DNA of 12,674 nt from Anaerolineae bacterium (GTDB lineage Bacteria > Chloroflexota > Anaerolineae > S140-20), in NCBI GenBank assembly GCA_027021705.1, contig JALUTT010000054.1, positions 1 through 12,674 on the forward strand, written 5' to 3'. Below, in pieces: positions 1 through 11,995 of the stretch; the stretch's first letter is position 1; every line of letters starts with the position of its first letter. The translations under genes were made by a program, and so were the position numbers. The notes below the pieces were generated by a model, which was given only the letters and a program-made list of their open reading frames with translations, ran no database searches and was not told the origin of the DNA.

Positions 1-149
1 AGGTGCTGATATAGCAGGTCTCGGAACCGGCGAAGTTGGGATTCGCTCATACTCCCAACTTTGCCCGGTTCCGGCCTGATTGTCAAGTCCTCCCAAGGAT
101 GGGAGCAGCTTTGTCAAAAGTCCAATAATATATTACATAAGGAGGATTA
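1..149 (+). promoter_or_regulatory. CRISPR leader (possibly partial)
   Basis: Non-coding, directly abuts the first intact repeat, and has an AT-rich stretch at 111-149 (ttgtcaaaagtccaataatatattacataaggaggatta) in an otherwise GC-rich context. TTGTCA at 111-116 and TAATAT/TATATT at 126-134 are promoter-like, but their spacing is not canonical. Confidence 0.8.
22..73. repeat. Imperfect inverted repeat (about 20-bp arms) in or upstream of the leader; possible terminator or protein-binding site
   Basis: cggaaccggcgaagttggga (22-41) pairs with tcccaactttgcccggttccg (53-73), with one bulge, one G-U pair and an 11-nt loop. There is no clear poly-U tail. Confidence 0.7.
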
Positions 150-3100
150 GTCCCACCCCACAGAATCCCGACCGAGGGATTGAAACAGCATACTGATAAT
201 CTTCCTTGTCAACACTAATCTGAGTCCCACCCCACAGAATCCCGACCGAGGGATTGAAACTCGTATAACCATCTTAAACTCTCCTTACCGAATAAGTCCC
301 ACCCCACAGAATCCCGACCGAGGGATTGAAACATAAAGGAATTCCCTCTAGCAAAAAAGGCAGGAAAAAGTCCCACCCCACAGAATCCCGACCGAGGGAT
401 TGAAACTTCTCTTTTAATTTCGTCGGTTGCGGTGATTGTGGTCCCACCCCACAGAATCCCGACCGAGGGATTGAAACTCCCCGGCCGCATTCGATTCATC
501 TATGTAGGCGGCCGTCCCACCCCACAGAATCCCGACCGAGGGATTGAAACCGCCGGAGCCGGCCGTCCGCTCTGCGAGCAGCTCGAGTCCCACCCCACAG
601 AATCCCGACCGAGGGATTGAAACCGTGGTCGTTGTGGAACGTGCGCAGCTCTTCGGCCAGGTCCCACCCCACAGAATCCCGACCGAGGGATTGAAACCGT
701 AGGCCCCCTGCCCGGAAGTTGGTGTACATCTTGGGTCCCACCCCACAGAATCCCGACCGAGGGATTGAAACGGGCTCTATAAGGCCGGCCTGAGCACCAC
801 GGAGATCGTCCCACCCCACAGAATCCCGACCGAGGGATTGAAACCTCCTGGATGAATCCCCAGATTTTCTGGATGGCCGGGTCCCACCCCACAGAATCCC
901 GACCGAGGGATTGAAACTCTGACCGGTTTGGCCTATCTGAGACCTTAACACTCGTCCCACCCCACAGAATCCCGACCGAGGGATTGAAACACTCTATCGC
1001 CAATTGCGCCCTGATTTATTGCAACGGTCCCACCCCACAGAATCCCGACCGAGGGATTGAAACTTAAGAGCAAGGCCAGAGGATTCATCCTCTTGGGGCG
1101 TCCCACCCCACAGAATCCCGACCGAGGGATTGAAACTTATCAAGACACAATTCCAGATCCAGATATTTAAGGAGTCCCACCCCACAGAATCCCGACCGAG
1201 GGATTGAAACCATTATCACATTTAACCTATTCGGGCGCCCCGGACGGGTCCCACCCCACAGAATCCCGACCGAGGGATTGAAACAATCCGCTTTGCGTCA
1301 TTAGCAAGGCTTTTGACACAAGTCCCACCCCACAGAATCCCGACCGAGGGATTGAAACTCTGACCGGTTTGGCCTATCTGAGACCTTAACACTCGTCCCA
1401 CCCCACAGAATCCCGACCGAGGGATTGAAACAGGCGCTTCTACTTCCGCCTAGCGCTGGCGCTGGGGAGTCCCACCCCACAGAATCCCGACCGAGGGATT
1501 GAAACGAGGGATAGCGCAGCTACCGGAACCGTTCCGCCACGTCCCACCCCACAGAATCCCGACCGAGGGATTGAAACACCTTTCCGGCTCCCCAGCCGGA
1601 CCGGAGACCGGCGTCCCACCCCACAGAATCCCGACCGAGGGATTGAAACTCCCCCACGGACACCTTGTAGAGCGTGCTCTTGGCGTCCCACCCCACAGAA
1701 TCCCGACCGAGGGATTGAAACATCCCACTCTGCGGGATGGGGCTTGAGAGATTGAGCGGTCCCACCCCACAGAATCCCGACCGAGGGATTGAAACCTCGA
1801 GCAGGACCGCGAAGCGGCCCCGCTCCTCGAAGTCCCACCCCACAGAATCCCGACCGAGGGATTGAAACGGGATTCTGTGGGGCGGAGAACGCGCGACTTT
1901 AGAAAGTCCCACCCCACAGAATCCCGACCGAGGGATTGAAACATCCGGGATGCTGATGCCCTTTTCCTTGATCTGCTCGTCCCACCCCACAGAATCCCGA
2001 CCGAGGGATTGAAACGCCCTCTGGGCAATCCCCATCCTGATTAAGACCGCGTCCCACCCCACAGAATCCCGACCGAGGGATTGAAACCATTGCGGATTCC
2101 GACCGGGAAGCGGATATACCCTCCGTCCCACCCCACAGAATCCCGACCGAGGGATTGAAACCGGGGGGTGCTGCCCCGTGTCTATAGGGCTGAGGTGGTC
2201 CCACCCCACAGAATCCCGACCGAGGGATTGAAACGCAGCCCTCTTCGCTGGACAGCACGTCCACGAAGATGTCCCACCCCACAGAATCCCGACCGAGGGA
2301 TTGAAACCACCGGGATTGCTCATCGCATCAAGCGACACGCAGGCGTCCCACCCCACAGAATCCCGACCGAGGGATTGAAACCAGAAATGCCTGGAGGTTA
2401 TGCAGAATTTGGCCGAGTCCCACCCCACAGAATCCCGACCGAGGGATTGAAACTGTGCCCAGGCTGGAGGACGACGGCAAATACTATGTGGTCCCACCCC
2501 ACAGAATCCCGACCGAGGGATTGAAACCGGTCCACGTTCACCGACTATGGCCCATCCGCCGGAGTCCCACCCCACAGAATCCCGACCGAGGGATTGAAAC
2601 CTGAAGGAGGATGACTTCTCCTTCAGCATCCTCCGAGTCCCACCCCACAGAATCCCGACCGAGGGATTGAAACTGGAGGTGGTCCACGCCCCGACCGGCA
2701 ACCCCGCCTAGTCCCACCCCACAGAATCCCGACCGAGGGATTGAAACCATTAAATCTATGGTGGGAATTCCAGAAAACCGATGAGTCCCACCCCACAGAA
2801 TCCCGACCGAGGGATTGAAACCTCTAATGAGCTCCGAAACAGATTATAACGCTCAAGTCCCACCCCACAGAATCCCGACCGAGGGATTGAAACTGGCCAA
2901 ATTAGCAGTCATTCGCAATCAAAATGGCAAGTCCCACCCCACAGAATCCCGACCGAGGGATTGAAACAGGAGGAGATTAGAAAAACTAAGGCCCCGAACT
3001 AACGTCCCACCCCACAGAATCCCGACCGAGGGATTGAAACTACCTCGGCTTCTGGCCCGATTTACTTAGCTACCAGGTCCCACCCCACAGAATCCCGACC

Positions 3101-6100
3101 GAGGGATTGAAACGCAATCTTCCCCTTTTCCCGGACAAACACGGGAGAGGTCCCACCCCACAGAATCCCGACCGAGGGATTGAAACCTCCTCAGGGTTCC
3201 ACTCCACGGGAACGGGGTTGGGGGTCCCACCCCACAGAATCCCGACCGAGGGATTGAAACTTGAATTTGTTTCTCGGCCTTTAACGATTGATGGAAGTCC
3301 CACCCCACAGAATCCCGACCGAGGGATTGAAACTAGAACAGCCACTTCGAGCGTCCGACCGGGGCCAGTCCCACCCCACAGAATCCCGACCGAGGGATTG
3401 AAACTCAATAGCAATTCCAGCCCTAAATGAGAAAATTGAAGTCCCACCCCACAGAATCCCGACCGAGGGATTGAAACACCTACAATGAAGCCGTTGCGTT
3501 CTATAACAAACCGGTGTCCCACCCCACAGAATCCCGACCGAGGGATTGAAACTTCGAGGTGAACTTCTCGATGCTGAACGACGCTATTGTCCCACCCCAC
3601 AGAATCCCGACCGAGGGATTGAAACGGGAGGAGGATATAGTACTCAAGTACTACGATTAGGTCCCACCCCACAGAATCCCGACCGAGGGATTGAAACTTC
3701 CTTAATCCTCTTATTTTCCCTAACTCAATGTTAAGTCCCACCCCACAGAATCCCGACCGAGGGATTGAAACTAACAGCATTAGCAGTAAACGAAGACTTC
3801 ATCTGTAGTCCCACCCCACAGAATCCCGACCGAGGGATTGAAACTTCGACGGAGATTTTGAAGCTGTCGAAGAATTTATTGTCCCACCCCACAGAATCCC
3901 GACCGAGGGATTGAAACATTGAGCGAAACGGTCCCGTTATCGGCTACCGCTTTGGGTCCCACCCCACAGAATCCCGACCGAGGGATTGAAACTCCAAAGC
4001 CCGTTCCTTGTTGAGGTAAGCCCGAAGAGTCCCACCCCACAGAATCCCGACCGAGGGATTGAAACGCCCGGGCGCCGAGGCGCCGGCGTCGCCGGGCGAG
4101 TCCCACCCCACAGAATCCCGACCGAGGGATTGAAACGGGCCACAGGAGGGCCCGGAACCCCACGGGGATCTCCGTCCCACCCCACAGAATCCCGACCGAG
4201 GGATTGAAACGGTTCTCCGTAGCAGCCTCTCCCGCAGCCCGTCAACGTCCCACCCCACAGAATCCCGACCGAGGGATTGAAACCCGCCGCAGAACCGCCG
4301 CCACCACTCGCCCCGTCGGCGTCCCACCCCACAGAATCCCGACCGAGGGATTGAAACAGCCGGGAAGACACTTCTGGCTGGCCCTCGGCATCGGGGGTCC
4401 CACCCCACAGAATCCCGACCGAGGGATTGAAACAGCGGCTGGTTTCATTTCCCCATCTCCAGGATGGCCGGTCCCACCCCACAGAATCCCGACCGAGGGA
4501 TTGAAACCGCGAAGGGATCATCGAAGACTCCCATGACTTCCAGGTCCCACCCCACAGAATCCCGACCGAGGGATTGAAACTCCCCGGCCAGCGCGTCGAA
4601 ATCGCTCTCCTCCAGGTCCCACCCCACAGAATCCCGACCGAGGGATTGAAACAAGAACCAGGACCGGGCCACCATCGGGGGCCTTGAAGTCCCACCCCAC
4701 AGAATCCCGACCGAGGGATTGAAACCTGGCGCCGGGGGCATCCTGGCCCTCGGAGAGTCTCGTCCCACCCCACAGAATCCCGACCGAGGGATTGAAACAC
4801 GTCCTTCGTCGGCCGCCGCATATTGGCCAGCATAGTCCCACCCCACAGAATCCCGACCGAGGGATTGAAACGCCACCATCTGGGCCGCCGTCGAGCCGCT
4901 GGAGCATGTCCCACCCCACAGAATCCCGACCGAGGGATTGAAACGCCGACGCCGGCAACTTCCACGCCGAGATGGATCGGTCCCACCCCACAGAATCCCG
5001 ACCGAGGGATTGAAACCACGGCGAGGAGCCCCGCGAAGGCCCCTCGCCGGCGGGTCCCACCCCACAGAATCCCGACCGAGGGATTGAAACGGGAGCCCTC
5101 GGAATCGCCCCTCGGCATCATAGAGAGTCCCACCCCACAGAATCCCGACCGAGGGATTGAAACTCGGCCTCGGGCGCGGCCGAGGCGATGGTGGGGCTCG
5201 TCCCACCCCACAGAATCCCGACCGAGGGATTGAAACCGAGCCGGCCGAGCCGATTGACGACAAATTGAGCGCCGTCCCACCCCACAGAATCCCGACCGAG
5301 GGATTGAAACTCCGACCTGGCCGAGGCCCTCAAAAACGTGGGGCCCAGTCCCACCCCACAGAATCCCGACCGAGGGATTGAAACGAAGACCCGCACCGCC
5401 CCCTCCAGGACAGCTTGCCGGGTCCCACCCCACAGAATCCCGACCGAGGGATTGAAACCCAACCGCAGTCGTACCCTGCCCCGCACATCGAACATGTCCC
5501 ACCCCACAGAATCCCGACCGAGGGATTGAAACCGCGGCCCCCCGCCACGGGGCGTCCGGGCCGTCGTCGTCCCACCCCACAGAATCCCGACCGAGGGATT
5601 GAAACTTGTCAGGGCAACAGCAGACGGGACACTCCCCCTAGGTCCCACCCCACAGAATCCCGACCGAGGGATTGAAACCTCGTCGAAGACCAGGGTCACC
5701 GGGTAGGCGAGCCGGGTCCCACCCCACAGAATCCCGACCGAGGGATTGAAACTATACTCCACCGAAGCGTTTGTAGAGCTTGTCTGCAAGTCCCACCCCA
5801 CAGAATCCCGACCGAGGGATTGAAACTCGCCCCCGAGGAGGCAGGCGAGAGGGGACCTCGTGTCCCACCCCACAGAATCCCGACCGAGGGATTGAAACCG
5901 GTCAGCTTCTGGTCCTCAGAGCCGTTGTAGAAGGCCGGTCCCACCCCACAGAATCCCGACCGAGGGATTGAAACCTGGAAGCCTACGACATTCTGGAACA
6001 GGGTCTCAAGGTCCCACCCCACAGAATCCCGACCGAGGGATTGAAACGGTTTCCAGGTGGCAGGTGGTTCTGCCGCAGAACCAGGTCCCACCCCACAGAA

Positions 6101-9100
6101 TCCCGACCGAGGGATTGAAACATAGCCCTGCTCGCCAACCTCAATACCTGCTCGGCACGTCCCACCCCACAGAATCCCGACCGAGGGATTGAAACTCTCC
6201 CGGTCGCCACCGGAGACCAGCCGCTTGGGTCCCACCCCACAGAATCCCGACCGAGGGATTGAAACTTCCGCTCAACCTCGACATCCCAGAACGACATCAG
6301 GTCCCACCCCACAGAATCCCGACCGAGGGATTGAAACTGTCCAGGTGATGGATGACTCGGTGATACCCCCAAACGTCCCACCCCACAGAATCCCGACCGA
6401 GGGATTGAAACCCGCCAGAACGCGCAGGAGTGGTACGGCAGGATGTGTCCCACCCCACAGAATCCCGACCGAGGGATTGAAACTGTCTTTAAGGATGAGC
6501 ACCACGCCCTGGTTAACAGCGGTCCCACCCCACAGAATCCCGACCGAGGGATTGAAACCATCCAGCTAAGGACACCGGGATCAAACACCTGTGCCCGGTC
6601 CCACCCCACAGAATCCCGACCGAGGGATTGAAACCTCCTCCAGCACCCCCATTGCTTTGAGGATACCGGCCAGGTCCCACCCCACAGAATCCCGACCGAG
6701 GGATTGAAACCGCCTTGATTTCTTCCATCGCGGTCTCCTTTCCGGCGTCCCACCCCACAGAATCCCGACCGAGGGATTGAAACCGTCTTCGGGGACCGAG
6801 AGGGGGCCGGGACAGGAAATGGTCCCACCCCACAGAATCCCGACCGAGGGATTGAAACGGGCCAGAAGACGCGGAGTGTGATTCCACCACCGCGTCCCAC
6901 CCCACAGAATCCCGACCGAGGGATTGAAACACTACGTGGCTGCTCTGACCGAGGTGGCGGACGTTGGTCCCACCCCACAGAATCCCGACCGAGGGATTGA
7001 AACCGGCTGGCGGGGGCTTCTGGCGGGGCTCCGCGCCGCGTCCCACCCCACAGAATCCCGACCGAGGGATTGAAACGTTCCCGGCCCTCGCTGGGCTGGG
7101 GGGGGCGGCTCCGGTCCCACCCCACAGAATCCCGACCGAGGGATTGAAACGCTATTTGACCTGAAGCGGGCAATGGCGAGGCTGTGGTCCCACCCCACAG
7201 AATCCCGACCGAGGGATTGAAACTCAGGTGCCCTGCCGTTGACTATGCGAAGTAGGCCGTCCCACCCCACAGAATCCCGACCGAGGGATTGAAACCGGAC
7301 CTCGCCCGTCTGTTCGTCAACCGTAGTCCTGTCCCACCCCACAGAATCCCGACCGAGGGATTGAAACACCCTGCGGGACGGCGGATGTTATACTATCATC
7401 CCTGGTCCCACCCCACAGAATCCCGACCGAGGGATTGAAACCACAGGACCCGGTAGGCCCGCAGCATAGAGAGAAAGTCCCACCCCACAGAATCCCGACC
7501 GAGGGATTGAAACCAGCGCTTCCTACTTTCCCTGTTCCCGAACGGAGAGTCCCACCCCACAGAATCCCGACCGAGGGATTGAAACTCCCACGGCAGACGC
7601 ATACGGAGCAAGCTCCGGCTGGTCCCACCCCACAGAATCCCGACCGAGGGATTGAAACACCATGACGTGTCCGTCAACCTGTGCCCACATACTACGTCCC
7701 ACCCCACAGAATCCCGACCGAGGGATTGAAACCGGGAATGTGCCGACCCTGATTGAGGAATGGGAAGAGTCCCACCCCACAGAATCCCGACCGAGGGATT
7801 GAAACCCCAGACGATGGGGCGATCCGACATATCGTGTCTCAGTCCCACCCCACAGAATCCCGACCGAGGGATTGAAACGGCCGGGCGGCATATGACACCC
7901 CGACTCCCCTTGGTCCCACCCCACAGAATCCCGACCGAGGGATTGAAACCTACAATCCTTACCATGACAGCAGAGGGAGATTTGCGTCCCACCCCACAGA
8001 ATCCCGACCGAGGGATTGAAACCCCCTGGAGAGTGGAGGTCCATCGCGGCATGAGCGGGTCCCACCCCACAGAATCCCGACCGAGGGATTGAAACGGTCC
8101 AGTCCTGCGCCTCCTTCAAGAGGCGCAGGGGTCCCACCCCACAGAATCCCGACCGAGGGATTGAAACGGCCCGAAGGCCGCGGACGTAGTGGAACACCTG
8201 ATCGTCCCACCCCACAGAATCCCGACCGAGGGATTGAAACCTCTTCCCCTTGCTCTTCCCCTTTCCCTTGCTCCTGGTCCCACCCCACAGAATCCCGACC
8301 GAGGGATTGAAACGGAGAACAACCAGGTTGTATATGATGCGGAGAAGGCGTCCCACCCCACAGAATCCCGACCGAGGGATTGAAACTTCCCCTATCCCCC
8401 AGGTTTGTGGCCTTGCGCCACGGTCCCACCCCACAGAATCCCGACCGAGGGATTGAAACTTCCCTTCTTCTTCCACTCGGGAGGAGAAGTTATAAGTCCC
8501 ACCCCACAGAATCCCGACCGAGGGATTGAAACAGGACCTATGATACCCTGACCAAGGTGATCAGGGCGGTCCCACCCCACAGAATCCCGACCGAGGGATT
8601 GAAACCAGGAGTTCTAGAGAGGCATCGAGACGCCGTATCGCGTCCCACCCCACAGAATCCCGACCGAGGGATTGAAACTTTCGGGTAAATCTGTCAACCC
8701 TCTCCCAACCTCCTGGGTCCCACCCCACAGAATCCCGACCGAGGGATTGAAACGTCATACAACCACACCTTACGCGGGAGATCAACCTTGAGTCCCACCC
8801 CACAGAATCCCGACCGAGGGATTGAAACGGGCATCGAGTAGACCCCTTCTCCGGGGAGATCCTGGGTCCCACCCCACAGAATCCCGACCGAGGGATTGAA
8901 ACCCGCTTCTCAGGCGCTCTGCCTGGAAGCACCCTCGGGTCCCACCCCACAGAATCCCGACCGAGGGATTGAAACTCGGACCACCAGATGGGAGGGTCCG
9001 GGTTCGACGTGCGTCCCACCCCACAGAATCCCGACCGAGGGATTGAAACTGCAGCTCGGGGCTCAGGCTGGCGATCGCCTCCCCCAGTCCCACCCCACAG

Positions 9101-11982
9101 AATCCCGACCGAGGGATTGAAACCTATCGCTCTCCTCTTCCCGAGGAGAACCAACCGCCGTCCCACCCCACAGAATCCCGACCGAGGGATTGAAACCATA
9201 CGGATAGGGGAGTGTTCCTGCTACCAGACCCCAAGTCCCACCCCACAGAATCCCGACCGAGGGATTGAAACCAAATCCGCCGGATAGCACACGGATTAGC
9301 GTGTGATGTCCCACCCCACAGAATCCCGACCGAGGGATTGAAACCCGCCCCTGCTCTTGGAGCGGGAGCCCTTGTACTTGGTCCCACCCCACAGAATCCC
9401 GACCGAGGGATTGAAACCCGGATCATAGGCGATCAGAGCGCGGGCGACCTCGGGTCCCACCCCACAGAATCCCGACCGAGGGATTGAAACCCGCACTCCC
9501 TTTATGGAGATCGTGCTCCTCGGATAGTCCCACCCCACAGAATCCCGACCGAGGGATTGAAACGGCCAGAGCGTCTGCGTGTTGCTGGAGTTGCGTGCGG
9601 TCCCACCCCACAGAATCCCGACCGAGGGATTGAAACAACATAGCACTCGCAACCGACCGACCGATCATCTACCGTCCCACCCCACAGAATCCCGACCGAG
9701 GGATTGAAACGCTCTACCGCTGGAGGCTCAATGATGGGTTTAGCACGGTCCCACCCCACAGAATCCCGACCGAGGGATTGAAACTCTGGTTGCGCGGCCC
9801 TCTCTCTTAGCGAAGAGGGCTGTCCCACCCCACAGAATCCCGACCGAGGGATTGAAACTTTATCGGCAAAGACGTGGTATCCCACATCCTGCATGTCCCA
9901 CCCCACAGAATCCCGACCGAGGGATTGAAACGCAAATGCGATAAGGAGATCTCCGGGTCACTGGATATGTCCCACCCCACAGAATCCCGACCGAGGGATT
10001 GAAACAGCGGCTATTACCTCCTCACGCTCCAGCAGGAGGAGGTCCCACCCCACAGAATCCCGACCGAGGGATTGAAACTTGCCCACATCCGAGGTGGTAC
10101 TCCATCCCCGGCGGGTCCCACCCCACAGAATCCCGACCGAGGGATTGAAACCTGTCCAGCGAAGATGGCTGGAGCCGCGCCATAGCGGGTCCCACCCCAC
10201 AGAATCCCGACCGAGGGATTGAAACCGATCTGGTCGGGGCTGATGGGGGAGAAGCTATCCCGTCCCACCCCACAGAATCCCGACCGAGGGATTGAAACCT
10301 TCCTCCTGTAAAGGGGAAGGACAGGAACGAGAGGAGGTCCCACCCCACAGAATCCCGACCGAGGGATTGAAACCGGTTCACCCCCTCCCTTGACCGGGCT
10401 GACCTGGAGGTGTCCCACCCCACAGAATCCCGACCGAGGGATTGAAACAAGCTGGAGAGTCGCTCTTCGGTTGCGATCAGCCGCGTCCCACCCCACAGAA
10501 TCCCGACCGAGGGATTGAAACCTCTCCCACAGAATCCCGACCAAGGGATCAGCACCTTGTCCCACCCCACAGAATCCCGACCGAGGGATTGAAACGATCA
10601 GAGCGAAGAGGTTGACATCTTTTTCCGGGAAGTCCCACCCCACAGAATCCCGACCGAGGGATTGAAACCTCCCGGAGCTCCTGGGGGAGGAGTGGGAGGA
10701 GATCGTCCCACCCCACAGAATCCCGACCGAGGGATTGAAACTCCAGTGCGACTTCTCCATCATCCACGATGGAGAAGTCCCACCCCACAGAATCCCGACC
10801 GAGGGATTGAAACCATGCTGGTTTAAGTTCTTGGATGTGTTTTGAGATAAGTCCCACCCCACAGAATCCCGACCGAGGGATTGAAACGCAGCCGTAGAAG
10901 ATTAGCACGCTCTCCAACTCCCGTTGGTCCCACCCCACAGAATCCCGACCGAGGGATTGAAACAGCCCCTCCTCCCTGCCATACGCTCCCGCGCATAGCA
11001 GTCCCACCCCACAGAATCCCGACCGAGGGATTGAAACCGCAGACGGCCGTTCTCACCGTATCTGGCGGTCTTAAGTCCCACCCCACAGAATCCCGACCGA
11101 GGGATTGAAACCGGATGAGAGCCAAATCCGAGATGCGCTTGAATATGGTCCCACCCCACAGAATCCCGACCGAGGGATTGAAACCTCCTCCTTCCCACCC
11201 TGCGCCGAGGGGGAGAGCGCGGTCCCACCCCACAGAATCCCGACCGAGGGATTGAAACGGAGATATTATAGGGTTTTTTAAGAATCTGTATGATGTCCCA
11301 CCCCACAGAATCCCGACCGAGGGATTGAAACAGCAACCGGCAACCGATAGCCGACCGATCTACCGTAGTCCCACCCCACAGAATCCCGACCGAGGGATTG
11401 AAACCCTGCCCGGCGGCCTGGCGTGGGGCGCGTCCTCCCCTAGTCCCACCCCACAGAATCCCGACCGAGGGATTGAAACAGCCCCTCCTCCCTGCCATGT
11501 ACCAGCCACTAGCGCAGTCCCACCCCACAGAATCCCGACCGAGGGATTGAAACTGGGGAAGCGAGAAGTGCGGATAGAATACATGGGGGGTCCCACCCCA
11601 CAGAATCCCGACCGAGGGATTGAAACGCGATAAGGCGTCTGGAGGAAAAGCTGTCCTCCATGTCCCACCCCACAGAATCCCGACCGAGGGATTGAAACAG
11701 GGAAGAGATATGGGAACTAGTTGGAGAGGGAAGATGTCCCACCCCACAGAATCCCGACCGAGGGATTGAAACGGGGCGGTCGTCCGGTCGGTGTTGGCCT
11801 CGGGCCGCGTCCCACCCCACAGAATCCCGACCGAGGGATTGAAACCGCGCCTGCGCTGGCGCGGGCGCGGGCTCGGGCCTCGGTCCCACCCCACAGAATC
11901 CCGACCGAGGGATTGAAACGATTACATTAACATCTTGCAGCGCGGCCTTGGGCGGGTCCCACCCCACAGAATCCCGACCGAG
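150..11982 (+). CRISPR. CRISPR array: 161 full 37-bp repeats plus one truncated 27-bp repeat (11956-11982), 161 spacers of 33-39 bp (mean about 36); likely class 1, tentatively type I-D
   Basis: The repeat recurs every ~73 bp from 150-186 to 11883-11919. It contains the hairpin AATCCC-GACCGA-GGGATT and ends in ATTGAAAC, typical of Cas6-processed repeats. Orientation comes from that 3' end and the AT-rich flank on the left. Subtype is inferred from repeat length and style and from implied GTN PAMs; no cas genes are in the window. Confidence 0.99.
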
Positions 11983-11995
11983 CATCTTCTAAATT

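Follow-up and report, generated by a model that had tools for sequence, protein, structure and literature searches.

A repeat-like CRISPR spacer in an Anaerolineae array, probably captured from a foreign copy of a related repeat

The 24th spacer (S24) of a long CRISPR array in an Anaerolineae bacterium begins with the reverse complement of part of the array's own repeat, and this likeness is not due to chance. We consider it probable that S24 is an ordinary immunity spacer, most likely taken up from foreign DNA bearing a repeat that is akin to the host's own without being identical to it. Its likeness to the repeat exceeds chance and is nevertheless incompatible with an origin in the host's own repeats, as expected of a spacer captured from a foreign repeat. 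S24 is a real oddity; a regulatory role is unsupported by our results, and any function ascribed to it is only putative.

The array and the match of spacer 24 to its repeat

The window, i.e. the whole stretch of DNA that was analysed (12,674 nt), contains the array features listed in Table 1. There are 162 repeat copies in the window array, and 160 of its spacers sit between full repeats, with one further spacer. The 5.19-Mb assembly has 242 full-length repeat copies, distributed over the window contig (C54) and the contigs C155 and C106, with no sequence difference among them; spacer length in the three arrays is 33–39 nt. Except for a half repeat on C106, no repeat-like copies were found elsewhere in the assembly. 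Since all 161 full repeats of the window array are identical, the array is young in mutational terms. The repeat has the 3' end ATTGAAAC and is predicted to form a hairpin in which positions 15–20 are paired with positions 27–32. A simple scan of the leader-side flank revealed no sigma-70-like promoter, and a scan for promoters and terminators over positions 1–260 gave no result.

Table 1. Features of the window referred to in the text
Feature	Position	Strand	Description
Leader-side flank	1..149	+	AT-rich beside the first repeat; degenerate repeat at the opposite array end
CRISPR array	150–11992	+	37-nt repeat in 161 identical copies, followed by a degenerate terminal copy; 161 spacers
Repeat 24	1832..1868	+	Directly upstream of spacer 24; perfect
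Spacer 24 (S24)	1869..1905	+	37 nt, normal length; repeat-derived "anti-repeat" spacer
PAM-proximal 14 nt of S24	1869..1882	+	Exact reverse complement of repeat positions 20–7
Repeat 25	1906..1942	+	Directly downstream of spacer 24; perfect
Spacer 142 (S142)	10522..10558	+	Second repeat-derived spacer, sense orientation
Terminal degenerate repeat	11957..11992	+	First 27 nt retained, including the GTC + 14-nt site

Sequence comparison agrees with the first-pass annotation, which had described the first 14 nt of S24 (16 of its first 17) as the reverse complement of repeat bases 20 to 4. Base 15 is a single C/T mismatch and bases 16–17 match repeat positions 5–4, so that S24 departs from the host repeat at base 15 and from base 18 onwards, differing from it by a substitution plus an indel. 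Read on the minus strand of the repeat, the match comes right after GTC, which is complementary to repeat positions 23–21. The annotation had put the number of such GTC-flanked seed sites at up to 162, which is exactly the number we counted in the window; another 63 are found on C155 and 19 on C106, giving 244 in the assembly, every one of them inside a repeat. With regard to its position in the array, S24 resembles a canonical spacer, being bordered on both sides by perfect repeats and having a length within the range of the array.

When 239 spacers from the three arrays were compared with both strands of the repeat, the longest exact matches were those of S142 (17 nt) and S24 (14 nt), the next best being 9 nt. 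None of 4780 shuffled spacers reached 14 nt, and only one reached 13 nt. These figures speak strongly against the view that S24 stems from ordinary DNA with an accidental 14-nt identity to the repeat, as does the presence of two repeat-like spacers in one array. It is true that a 21-mer of S24 has single near-matches (2–3 mismatches, at most three being allowed) in 27 of 400 other genomes of the class, and the four of these that were inspected all proved to be ordinary DNA and not CRISPR repeats, for which reason they were dismissed as the source of S24. An assembly chimera would be the other trivial explanation, and S24 has no independent read support in public data, four public read runs covering the repeats and leaving the interior of S24 uncovered. 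A chimera, however, would not yield a new sequence of the right length, whereas the unit has a normal length and its flanking repeats are perfect. Coincidence or artefact therefore seems extremely improbable as an explanation.

Origin of spacer 24

A comparison of 30 repeat variants from Anaerolineae genomes showed that the last ~24 nt of the repeat are conserved in this family and the first 13 nt are variable. The departures of S24 and S142 from the host repeat fall mainly in this variable 5' part. S142 starts right after the first three bases of the repeat, GTC, and aligns without gaps to repeat positions 4–37 with eight substitutions and an exact core of 17 nt. The two spacers have the motif TCTCC in common in the variable part, and this motif is present in none of the 30 repeat variants. 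Only S24 and S142 stood out among 575 spacers compared with these variants; one weaker repeat-like candidate (12 nt) was seen in another genome. We read both spacers as apparently ordinary acquisitions from foreign repeat copies.

According to the explanation that we prefer, the adaptation machinery (Cas1d, Cas2 and Cas4) would have cut S24 from foreign DNA, which could be a different array, a mini-array or a solitary repeat, located in a neighbouring strain or on a phage or plasmid. The protospacer would lie on the minus strand of the foreign repeat copy, directly after a GTC PAM, and would extend over the initial ~20 bases of that repeat together with ~16 bases on its upstream side. The block CCCCACAGAATCCC would be common to the foreign and the host repeat, and because it is present in both, the PAM-proximal 14 nt of S24 match every host repeat. 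The self-match would then be a tolerated by-product, and a full R-loop followed by cleavage is not to be expected, since the match ends after 14 nt (16 of 17).

An origin within the host's own arrays is incompatible with the sequence, because all 242 repeats are identical and S24 differs from them by both a substitution and an indel. One could still imagine a local mutation: either the neighbouring repeat served as template in a quasi-palindrome conversion (template switching) that altered an ordinary spacer in place, or a self-derived spacer later changed so that it escaped autoimmunity. The inverted match is indeed perfect over 15 bp with the immediately adjacent repeat, and the source of S24 was not found elsewhere. 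The match nevertheless begins exactly at S24 base 1, after a PAM-like GTC, and it continues past a mismatch as homology would; moreover, the length of S24 is normal. Template switching cannot create S142, which is in the sense orientation and carries its eight substitutions, and the uniformity of the repeats in the array leaves little sign of mutation. In addition, had S24 arisen in the host's own array, a host spacer with a particular 3' end would be required, and no spacer with that ending is present. We thus regard local mutation as very unlikely.

With regard to a foreign repeat copy as the source, searches for the protospacer of S24, which the annotation had recommended in the host genome and in viral and plasmid databases, did not yield it. 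The exact 21-mer had no occurrence in the viral_contigs and genome_contigs collections, and in metagenome_contigs it occurred only in the window's own contig. BLAST against plasmids gave nothing, and BLAST against phages gave two 22-nt records with E=6, which were taken as chance. The repeat core, sought in 61 relatives, gave isolated matches at chance level and nothing more. The 3' 20 nt of S24 gave nothing beyond chance matches of 12–13 nt in the 5.19-Mb assembly, and its last 15–20 nt matched none of the host spacers. The core pattern of S142 occurred in three related arrays in genome_contigs, all having G where S142 has A, and had no match in viral_contigs. The phage and plasmid BLAST matches to S142 were at chance level only; the best of these, to Rhodococcus phage Finch (E=0.1), corresponds to a 28-nt intergenic gap with a ribosome-binding site.

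A repeat of this family does occur on a phage: a solitary copy, followed by a terminator, lies on a phage contig that has portal and Mu-F head genes. This repeat is not the source of S24, and a comparison of the element's seed with the host genome and the other loci gave no match flanked by GTN. The proposal of the annotation that S24 was acquired from a variant repeat is accordingly supported, in an indirect way, by the variable 5' part, by S142 and by the solitary repeat on the phage, while the source itself was not found. It should be underlined that in a 37-nt register the deduced source has T at its 5' end, as opposed to the G(T/C) of the family, and that a GT start is obtained only if the source is taken as a unit of 39 nt. 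Because of this poor fit to the repeat family at the 5' end, the source may be a degenerate repeat mimic, or no repeat at all.

The cas locus, the PAM and possible effects on the host array

The window itself contains no cas genes, and the same 37-nt repeat is found on C155 next to Cas10d, Csc2, Csc1, Cas3', Cas6, Cas4, Cas1d and Cas2. The signature genes of type I-D (Cas10d, Csc2/Cas7d, Csc1/Cas5d and Cas3'), downstream of which the repeat lies there, all scored above the NCBIfam cut-offs. A type I-B effector cassette (Cas8b, Cas7b and Cas5b) is inserted in this type I-D locus, and as both effectors belong to the same cas locus, the array could be served by either.

GTN is the published PAM of type I-D (PMC10212523). 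The 5' flanks deduced from overlapping spacers were GTG, GTA, GTA, GCT, GCT and GAC, hence all six start with G, and the 3' flanks displayed no pattern. Moreover, ATT and ATC flank S23-like and S25-like sequences in one public run (X3). GTN thus accounts for three of the eight inferred flanks, the five others all stemming from non-identical variants. The flanks from overlapping spacers lend support to GTN as the PAM that this system would use, and the GTC before the S24 match in the host repeat serves as a proxy for the PAM at the protospacer of S24. The annotation's premise of a type I-D system with a GTN PAM largely holds: type I-D genes adjoin the same repeat and three of the inferred flanks are GTN, against which stand the type I-B cassette and the five other flanks. 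Protospacers of other spacers were not recovered either: S25, sought with a wobble N, and S11 had no matches; a 19-mer common to S148 and S155 led to one viral contig, in which only 20 of 37 nt matched, and which was rejected as a protospacer; the whole array had no megablast match to phages or plasmids; and no full protospacer for any array spacer was present in the host assembly.

The annotation had also suggested that Cascade guided by crRNA24 might park on the repeats, recognising GTC and the 14-nt seed without a full R-loop, with autoregulation or priming as the outcome. Such a guide would form partial R-loops and so repress transcription of the array or prime adaptation, which is physically possible. 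All of the 244 sites combine GTC with a perfect PAM-proximal match, and crRNA24 would, from the sequence, pair with the non-template strand of the array. Furthermore, CreA together with type I-B Cascade represses with only seed positions 1–5 and 7–11 and the PAM (PMC8501985), and partial complementarity is described as generally turning guides into regulators (PMC10120712). S24 does not, however, have the appearance of such a guide. It is a normal unit between perfect repeats, at position 24 of 161, and not a degenerate mini-array beside cas genes; none of the 244 sites lies in the leader or in a cas promoter; there is no equivalent among the 336 spacers of 29 related arrays, and S24 was present in no public run examined. 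Signs of self-priming were absent, as none of the 239 host spacers derives from the host's own repeat–spacer junctions. Finally, free crRNA24 is predicted to fold into a hairpin (-36.4 kcal/mol) in which its seed is buried. A regulatory guide is for these reasons highly improbable, and the suggestion of autoregulation or priming was not upheld. Cleavage of the host's own repeats by way of S24 likewise appears unlikely, because type I-D tolerates fewer than three mismatches: in the Microcystis system, 23 PAM-proximal nucleotides matter and three mismatches abolish activity (PMC8216271).

At the RNA level, the annotation had pointed to a stem that would compete with the Cas6 hairpin. This 15-bp stem (1838–1852 with 1868–1882) is perfect and is part of the predicted minimum-energy fold; its 5' arm consists of repeat 24 bases 7–21 and its 3' arm of base 1868 and the first 14 nt of S24, to which repeat 25 is also predicted to be able to pair. 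In free RNA, S24 is predicted to be able to base-pair with the repeat on either side at the expense of the Cas6 hairpin, and crRNAs 23, 24 and 25 may, on this model, mature poorly. The predicted energies favour such an effect (-30.1 kcal/mol for the duplex as against -8.6 kcal/mol for the hairpin), and in repeats 24 and 25 the hairpin has an equilibrium probability of ~0, compared with a median of 0.98 over the 161 repeats. By the same calculation, however, the hairpin is lost in six of the 161 repeats (24, 25, 4, 5, 64 and 138), hence the loss is not special to S24, and Cas6 might bind repeat 24 co-transcriptionally, its hairpin being made earlier in the transcript than S24. The competing stem is thus confirmed as a thermodynamic prediction, though not as something unique to this spacer. 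A lowered yield of crRNAs 23–25, which would be compatible with capture from a foreign repeat copy, is possible but rather doubtful. A search of Rfam gave only a sub-threshold miRNA-like match, caused by the long hairpin.

Comparison with known systems

Compared with ordinary type I-D spacers (Synechocystis, Microcystis and Sulfolobus; PMC10212523), S24 likewise sits between full repeats and has a typical length, its repeat likewise stands beside Cas10d, Csc2, Csc1, Cas3' and Cas1d, and its putative protospacer follows GTC. It differs in that its protospacer would lie in a copy of a CRISPR repeat, which results in the seed match to 244 host sites, and the host's cas locus differs from ordinary type I-D systems by the type I-B effector cassette. 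S24 offers a natural experiment on self-tolerance, the PAM and the 14-nt seed fitting 244 sites of its own genome while all repeats are intact, a state that fits the strict mismatch limits of type I-D.

In common with CreA/CreR guides (PMC8501985; bioRxiv 10.1101/2023.03.10.532045), S24 combines a PAM with a short perfect seed and would not lead to cleavage, its 14-nt match being longer than the 10 paired seed bases of CreA. Those guides are, as far as these two sources describe them, degenerate mini-arrays beside cas genes with a promoter as target, whereas S24 is a normal unit of a long array and matches repeats only; an ectopic mini-array, a seed match to a promoter and a conserved pairing were all lacking. 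S24 also resembles a tracrRNA in being an RNA segment that is complementary to the CRISPR repeat and can pair with pre-crRNA. A tracrRNA, however, is a separate gene of class 2 systems that takes part in processing by RNase III, while S24 is a spacer in a class 1 array with Cas6-dependent processing. S24 was consequently rejected as a tracrRNA: the locus is of class 1 (I-D plus I-B), and the anti-repeat is a spacer, not a stand-alone gene of a type II or V locus.

The literature search found no paper on spacers that target CRISPR. Related elements are the RNA anti-CRISPRs or solitary repeat units known as Racr (Camara-Wilpert et al. 2023, PMC10651486) and the viral crRNA-like regulators known as Cracr (bioRxiv 10.1101/2024.10.29.618823), and the accessible portions of these two sources make no mention of host spacers against such mimics. 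Repeat mimics of this kind on phages and plasmids would be the likeliest type of source for S24, which would then be the host's record of such an element and not the element itself. That S24 and S142 provide immunity against Racr- or Cracr-like RNAs, which phages or plasmids would carry as repeat mimics directed against the present CRISPR system, is a further step, which we hold to be unlikely. Besides DNA, type I-D Cascade binds single-stranded RNA, for which its Cas7d is the predicted nuclease (PMC10212523); as crRNA24 would be complementary over its full length to the sense transcript of its source, it could neutralise a mimic both as DNA and as RNA. If this were the case, S24 would be an "anti-anti-CRISPR" guide against repeat mimics, bought at the price of a 14-nt self-match that would also modulate the maturation or transcription of the host's own array. 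Taken together, two such spacers and a solitary repeat on a phage suggest that hosts acquire spacers against repeat-carrying invaders, which would be a counter-move to RNA anti-CRISPRs and one that is open to systematic search.

Composite cas locus and associated arrays

The window, which is a whole 12,674-bp contig of the 5.19-Mb host assembly (66% G+C), contains no cas gene. Related records point to uncultured Anaerolineae (Chloroflexota) as its source. An array of 63 copies of the window's repeat lies on another contig of the assembly (C155), downstream of cas genes that all scored above the NCBIfam cut-offs: Cas10d, Csc2/Cas7d, Csc1/Cas5d, an I-D-type Cas3', two Cas6, Cas4, Cas1d and Cas2. 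PADLOC also revealed a type I-B effector cassette inserted between csc1 and the I-D-type cas3', comprising Cas8b (E 9e-141), Cas7b, Cas5b, an unassigned 284-aa ORF, a Cas3 helicase and Cas6. The type I-D label given in the first-pass annotation thus fits the adaptation genes and one of the effectors, but the locus also holds the I-B cassette, and the arrays may be shared by this second effector.

The window array is read on the plus strand because the sequence upstream of its first repeat is AT-rich and its last repeat is degenerate, keeping the first 27 nt alone; a simple scan of the upstream flank found no promoter. The repeat ends in ATTGAAAC and is predicted to form a 6-bp hairpin (positions 15-20 paired with 27-32, -8.6 kcal/mol). 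Spacers 11 (918-953) and 17 (1359-1394) are identical, though their neighbours differ. A third contig of 1.7 kb (C106) has 18 full repeats and the same degenerate terminal repeat and trailer flank as the window, shares none of its 17 intervening spacers with it, and begins on its leader side with just the last 18 nt of one repeat; this contig probably represents either a strain variant or a copy that has undergone rearrangement. A 21-nt motif at 110-131, in the flank on the leader side of the window array, recurs inverted (20 of 21 nt) just past the last C155 repeat (after 23706).

Features of the host arrays and of a phage locus (window coordinates unless a contig or locus is named)
Feature	Position	Strand	Description
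Composite cas locus	C155 (L001), 483-18775		I-D operon with I-B insert, then one Cas4-Cas1d-Cas2 module and one array
CRISPR array	150-11992	+	161 identical 37-nt repeats, one further spacer, terminal degenerate repeat
Spacer 23	1796-1831		Flanks spacer 24; protospacer-like match in metagenome run X3
Spacer 24	1869-1905	+	37 nt
Spacer 25	1943-1978		Flanks spacer 24; protospacer-like match in metagenome run X3
Spacer 142	10522-10558	+	Second repeat-derived spacer, sense orientation
Solitary repeat	Phage contig L048, 1407-1443	-	Between a small ORF (after the Mu-F-like head gene) and the next gene

Repeat-like spacers and the PAM

Read as its reverse complement, the repeat agrees exactly with spacer 24 at the first 14 bases (repeat positions 20-7) and at bases 16-17 (positions 5-4), with a mismatch at base 15 between them. 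GTC precedes this match on the minus strand of the repeat. Counts of the GTC-flanked 14-mer are 162 for the window, 63 for C155 and 19 for C106, and all 244 sites lie within repeats. Both the anti-repeat seed beside GTC and the 162 flanked sites, as proposed in the first-pass annotation, were thereby borne out. When all 239 spacers of the three arrays were compared with the repeat, spacers 142 and 24 gave the longest exact matches, at 17 and 14 nt, and the next best was 9 nt; in 4780 shuffled spacers the longest match was 13 nt, seen once. The match is therefore real and not due to chance, a statistically solid oddity. Reads from four public runs did not cover spacer 24, coverage being confined to repeats.

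Spacer 142 can be aligned gap-free with repeat positions 4-37; it differs there by eight substitutions (its bases 2, 3, 4, 22 and 29-32), and 3 nt of it lie beyond the aligned part. As the alignment begins at position 4, the start of this spacer directly follows the GTC of the repeat (positions 1-3). With three mismatches in its seed, this spacer is not expected to engage the host repeats.

Published type I-D PAMs are GTN or GTH (PMC10212523). To infer flanks for the host system we used host spacers overlapping one another by at least 16 nt. The 5' flanks obtained were GTG, GTA, GTA, GCT, GCT and GAC, with G at -3 in 6/6, and the 3' flanks gave no pattern. Two contigs from X3, a hydrothermal vent metagenome, carry sequences resembling spacers 23 (two differences) and 25 (three differences); these are embedded in non-repeat DNA and are read as protospacers, with 5' flanks ATT and ATC. 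Overall GTN was found in three of eight flanks against about 1/16 expected, and four of the five others are one transition off GTN; all five come from non-identical variants. A GTN PAM, assumed previously, is accordingly supported by three flanks but not by the remaining five, and not proven. The overlaps also show that spacers 148 (10964-11000) and 155 (11480-11516) begin with an identical 19-nt stretch and differ after it, one start having been used on two variants of a single target. Opposite-strand overlaps, within one array and between arrays, link window spacers 13, 29, 48 and 140 with spacer 137 and C155 spacers 23, 17 and 42, the pattern that results when a single region of an invader is sampled repeatedly or by priming.

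Possible action on host repeats and predicted folding of the transcript

In the type I-D system of Microcystis, activity depends on the 23 bases nearest the PAM and is lost with three mismatches (PMC8216271). Since about 20 of 37 positions of spacer 24 are mismatched to the host repeat, cleavage of the repeats guided by it would be unlikely; all repeats are intact. It had also been suggested that the guide parks Cascade on the repeats, giving autoregulation or priming. Such transient binding is physically plausible, as 10 paired seed bases and a PAM suffice for CreA to repress its target (PMC8501985). However, spacer 24 has none of the marks of CreA-type regulators: it does not lie in a degenerate ectopic mini-array, matches no promoter and is not conserved. 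Nor was any host spacer found to derive from the host's own repeat-spacer junctions, and there is thus no trace of self-priming.

With regard to the pre-crRNA, the proposed competing stem (1838-1852 with 1868-1882) has 15 perfect pairs (-30.1 kcal/mol) and belongs to the predicted minimum-energy fold. The predicted equilibrium probability of the Cas6 hairpin is about 0 for repeats 24 and 25 against a median of 0.98. The same prediction, however, loses the hairpin equally in repeats 4, 5, 64 and 138. Free crRNA24 is predicted to form a hairpin of -36.4 kcal/mol that hides the seed, compared with -13.4 kcal/mol for the crRNA25 fold.

Probable origin of spacer 24 and a phage-borne repeat

The host's own arrays were ruled out as the source, as all 242 full-length repeats in the assembly are identical and spacer 24 loses agreement with them at base 15 and again beyond base 17. 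Its last 20 nt matched nothing in the assembly above chance, and the only other repeat-like copy there is the half repeat with which C106 begins. BLAST of 401 genomes of the class gave matches in 35, the host's own among them, and the loci examined, together with three from the species collection, yielded 30 repeat variants. In this family the last ~24 nt, ending GGGATTGAAAC, are conserved and the first 13 nt vary freely. The inferred source of spacer 24 diverges from the host repeat in the variable 5' part, and that of spacer 142 partly so. Both spacers carry TCTCC there, which is present in 0/30 variants. When 575 spacers were compared with the 30 variants, these two alone stood out; a weaker candidate, spacer 11 of another Anaerolineae genome (L022), resembles in its last 23 nt the opening 22 nt of another repeat in the family, with a 12-nt exact core, and is possibly a third repeat-derived spacer.

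The best explanation for spacer 24 is that it was captured in the ordinary, PAM-guided way from foreign DNA carrying a copy of this repeat family, and that its match to the host's own repeats is a tolerated by-product. The earlier proposal of a variant-repeat origin is indirectly supported as to a non-host source diverging in the variable part, but the source itself was absent from the viral, genome, metagenome, phage and plasmid collections searched. A mismatch-tolerant search of the class genomes gave single hits only, and the four inspected were ordinary DNA. It also counts against a foreign repeat that the inferred source, in the 37-nt register, would begin with T and not with the family's G(T/C).

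A single, solitary repeat of the family, identical to the host repeat at 26 of 37 nt, was found on a phage contig (L048) that also has genes for a portal protein and a Mu-F-like head protein; ~60 nt after the repeat comes a strong terminator. The seed of this element has no GTN-flanked match in the host genome. Host spacers directed at repeat mimics did not turn up in a small, word-based literature search. The architecture of the phage locus is that described in PMC10651486 and bioRxiv 10.1101/2024.10.29.618823 for viral solitary repeat units, Racr and Cracr RNAs. The phage-borne repeat is a candidate for an RNA of the Racr/Cracr type that would act on type I systems of Anaerolineae.
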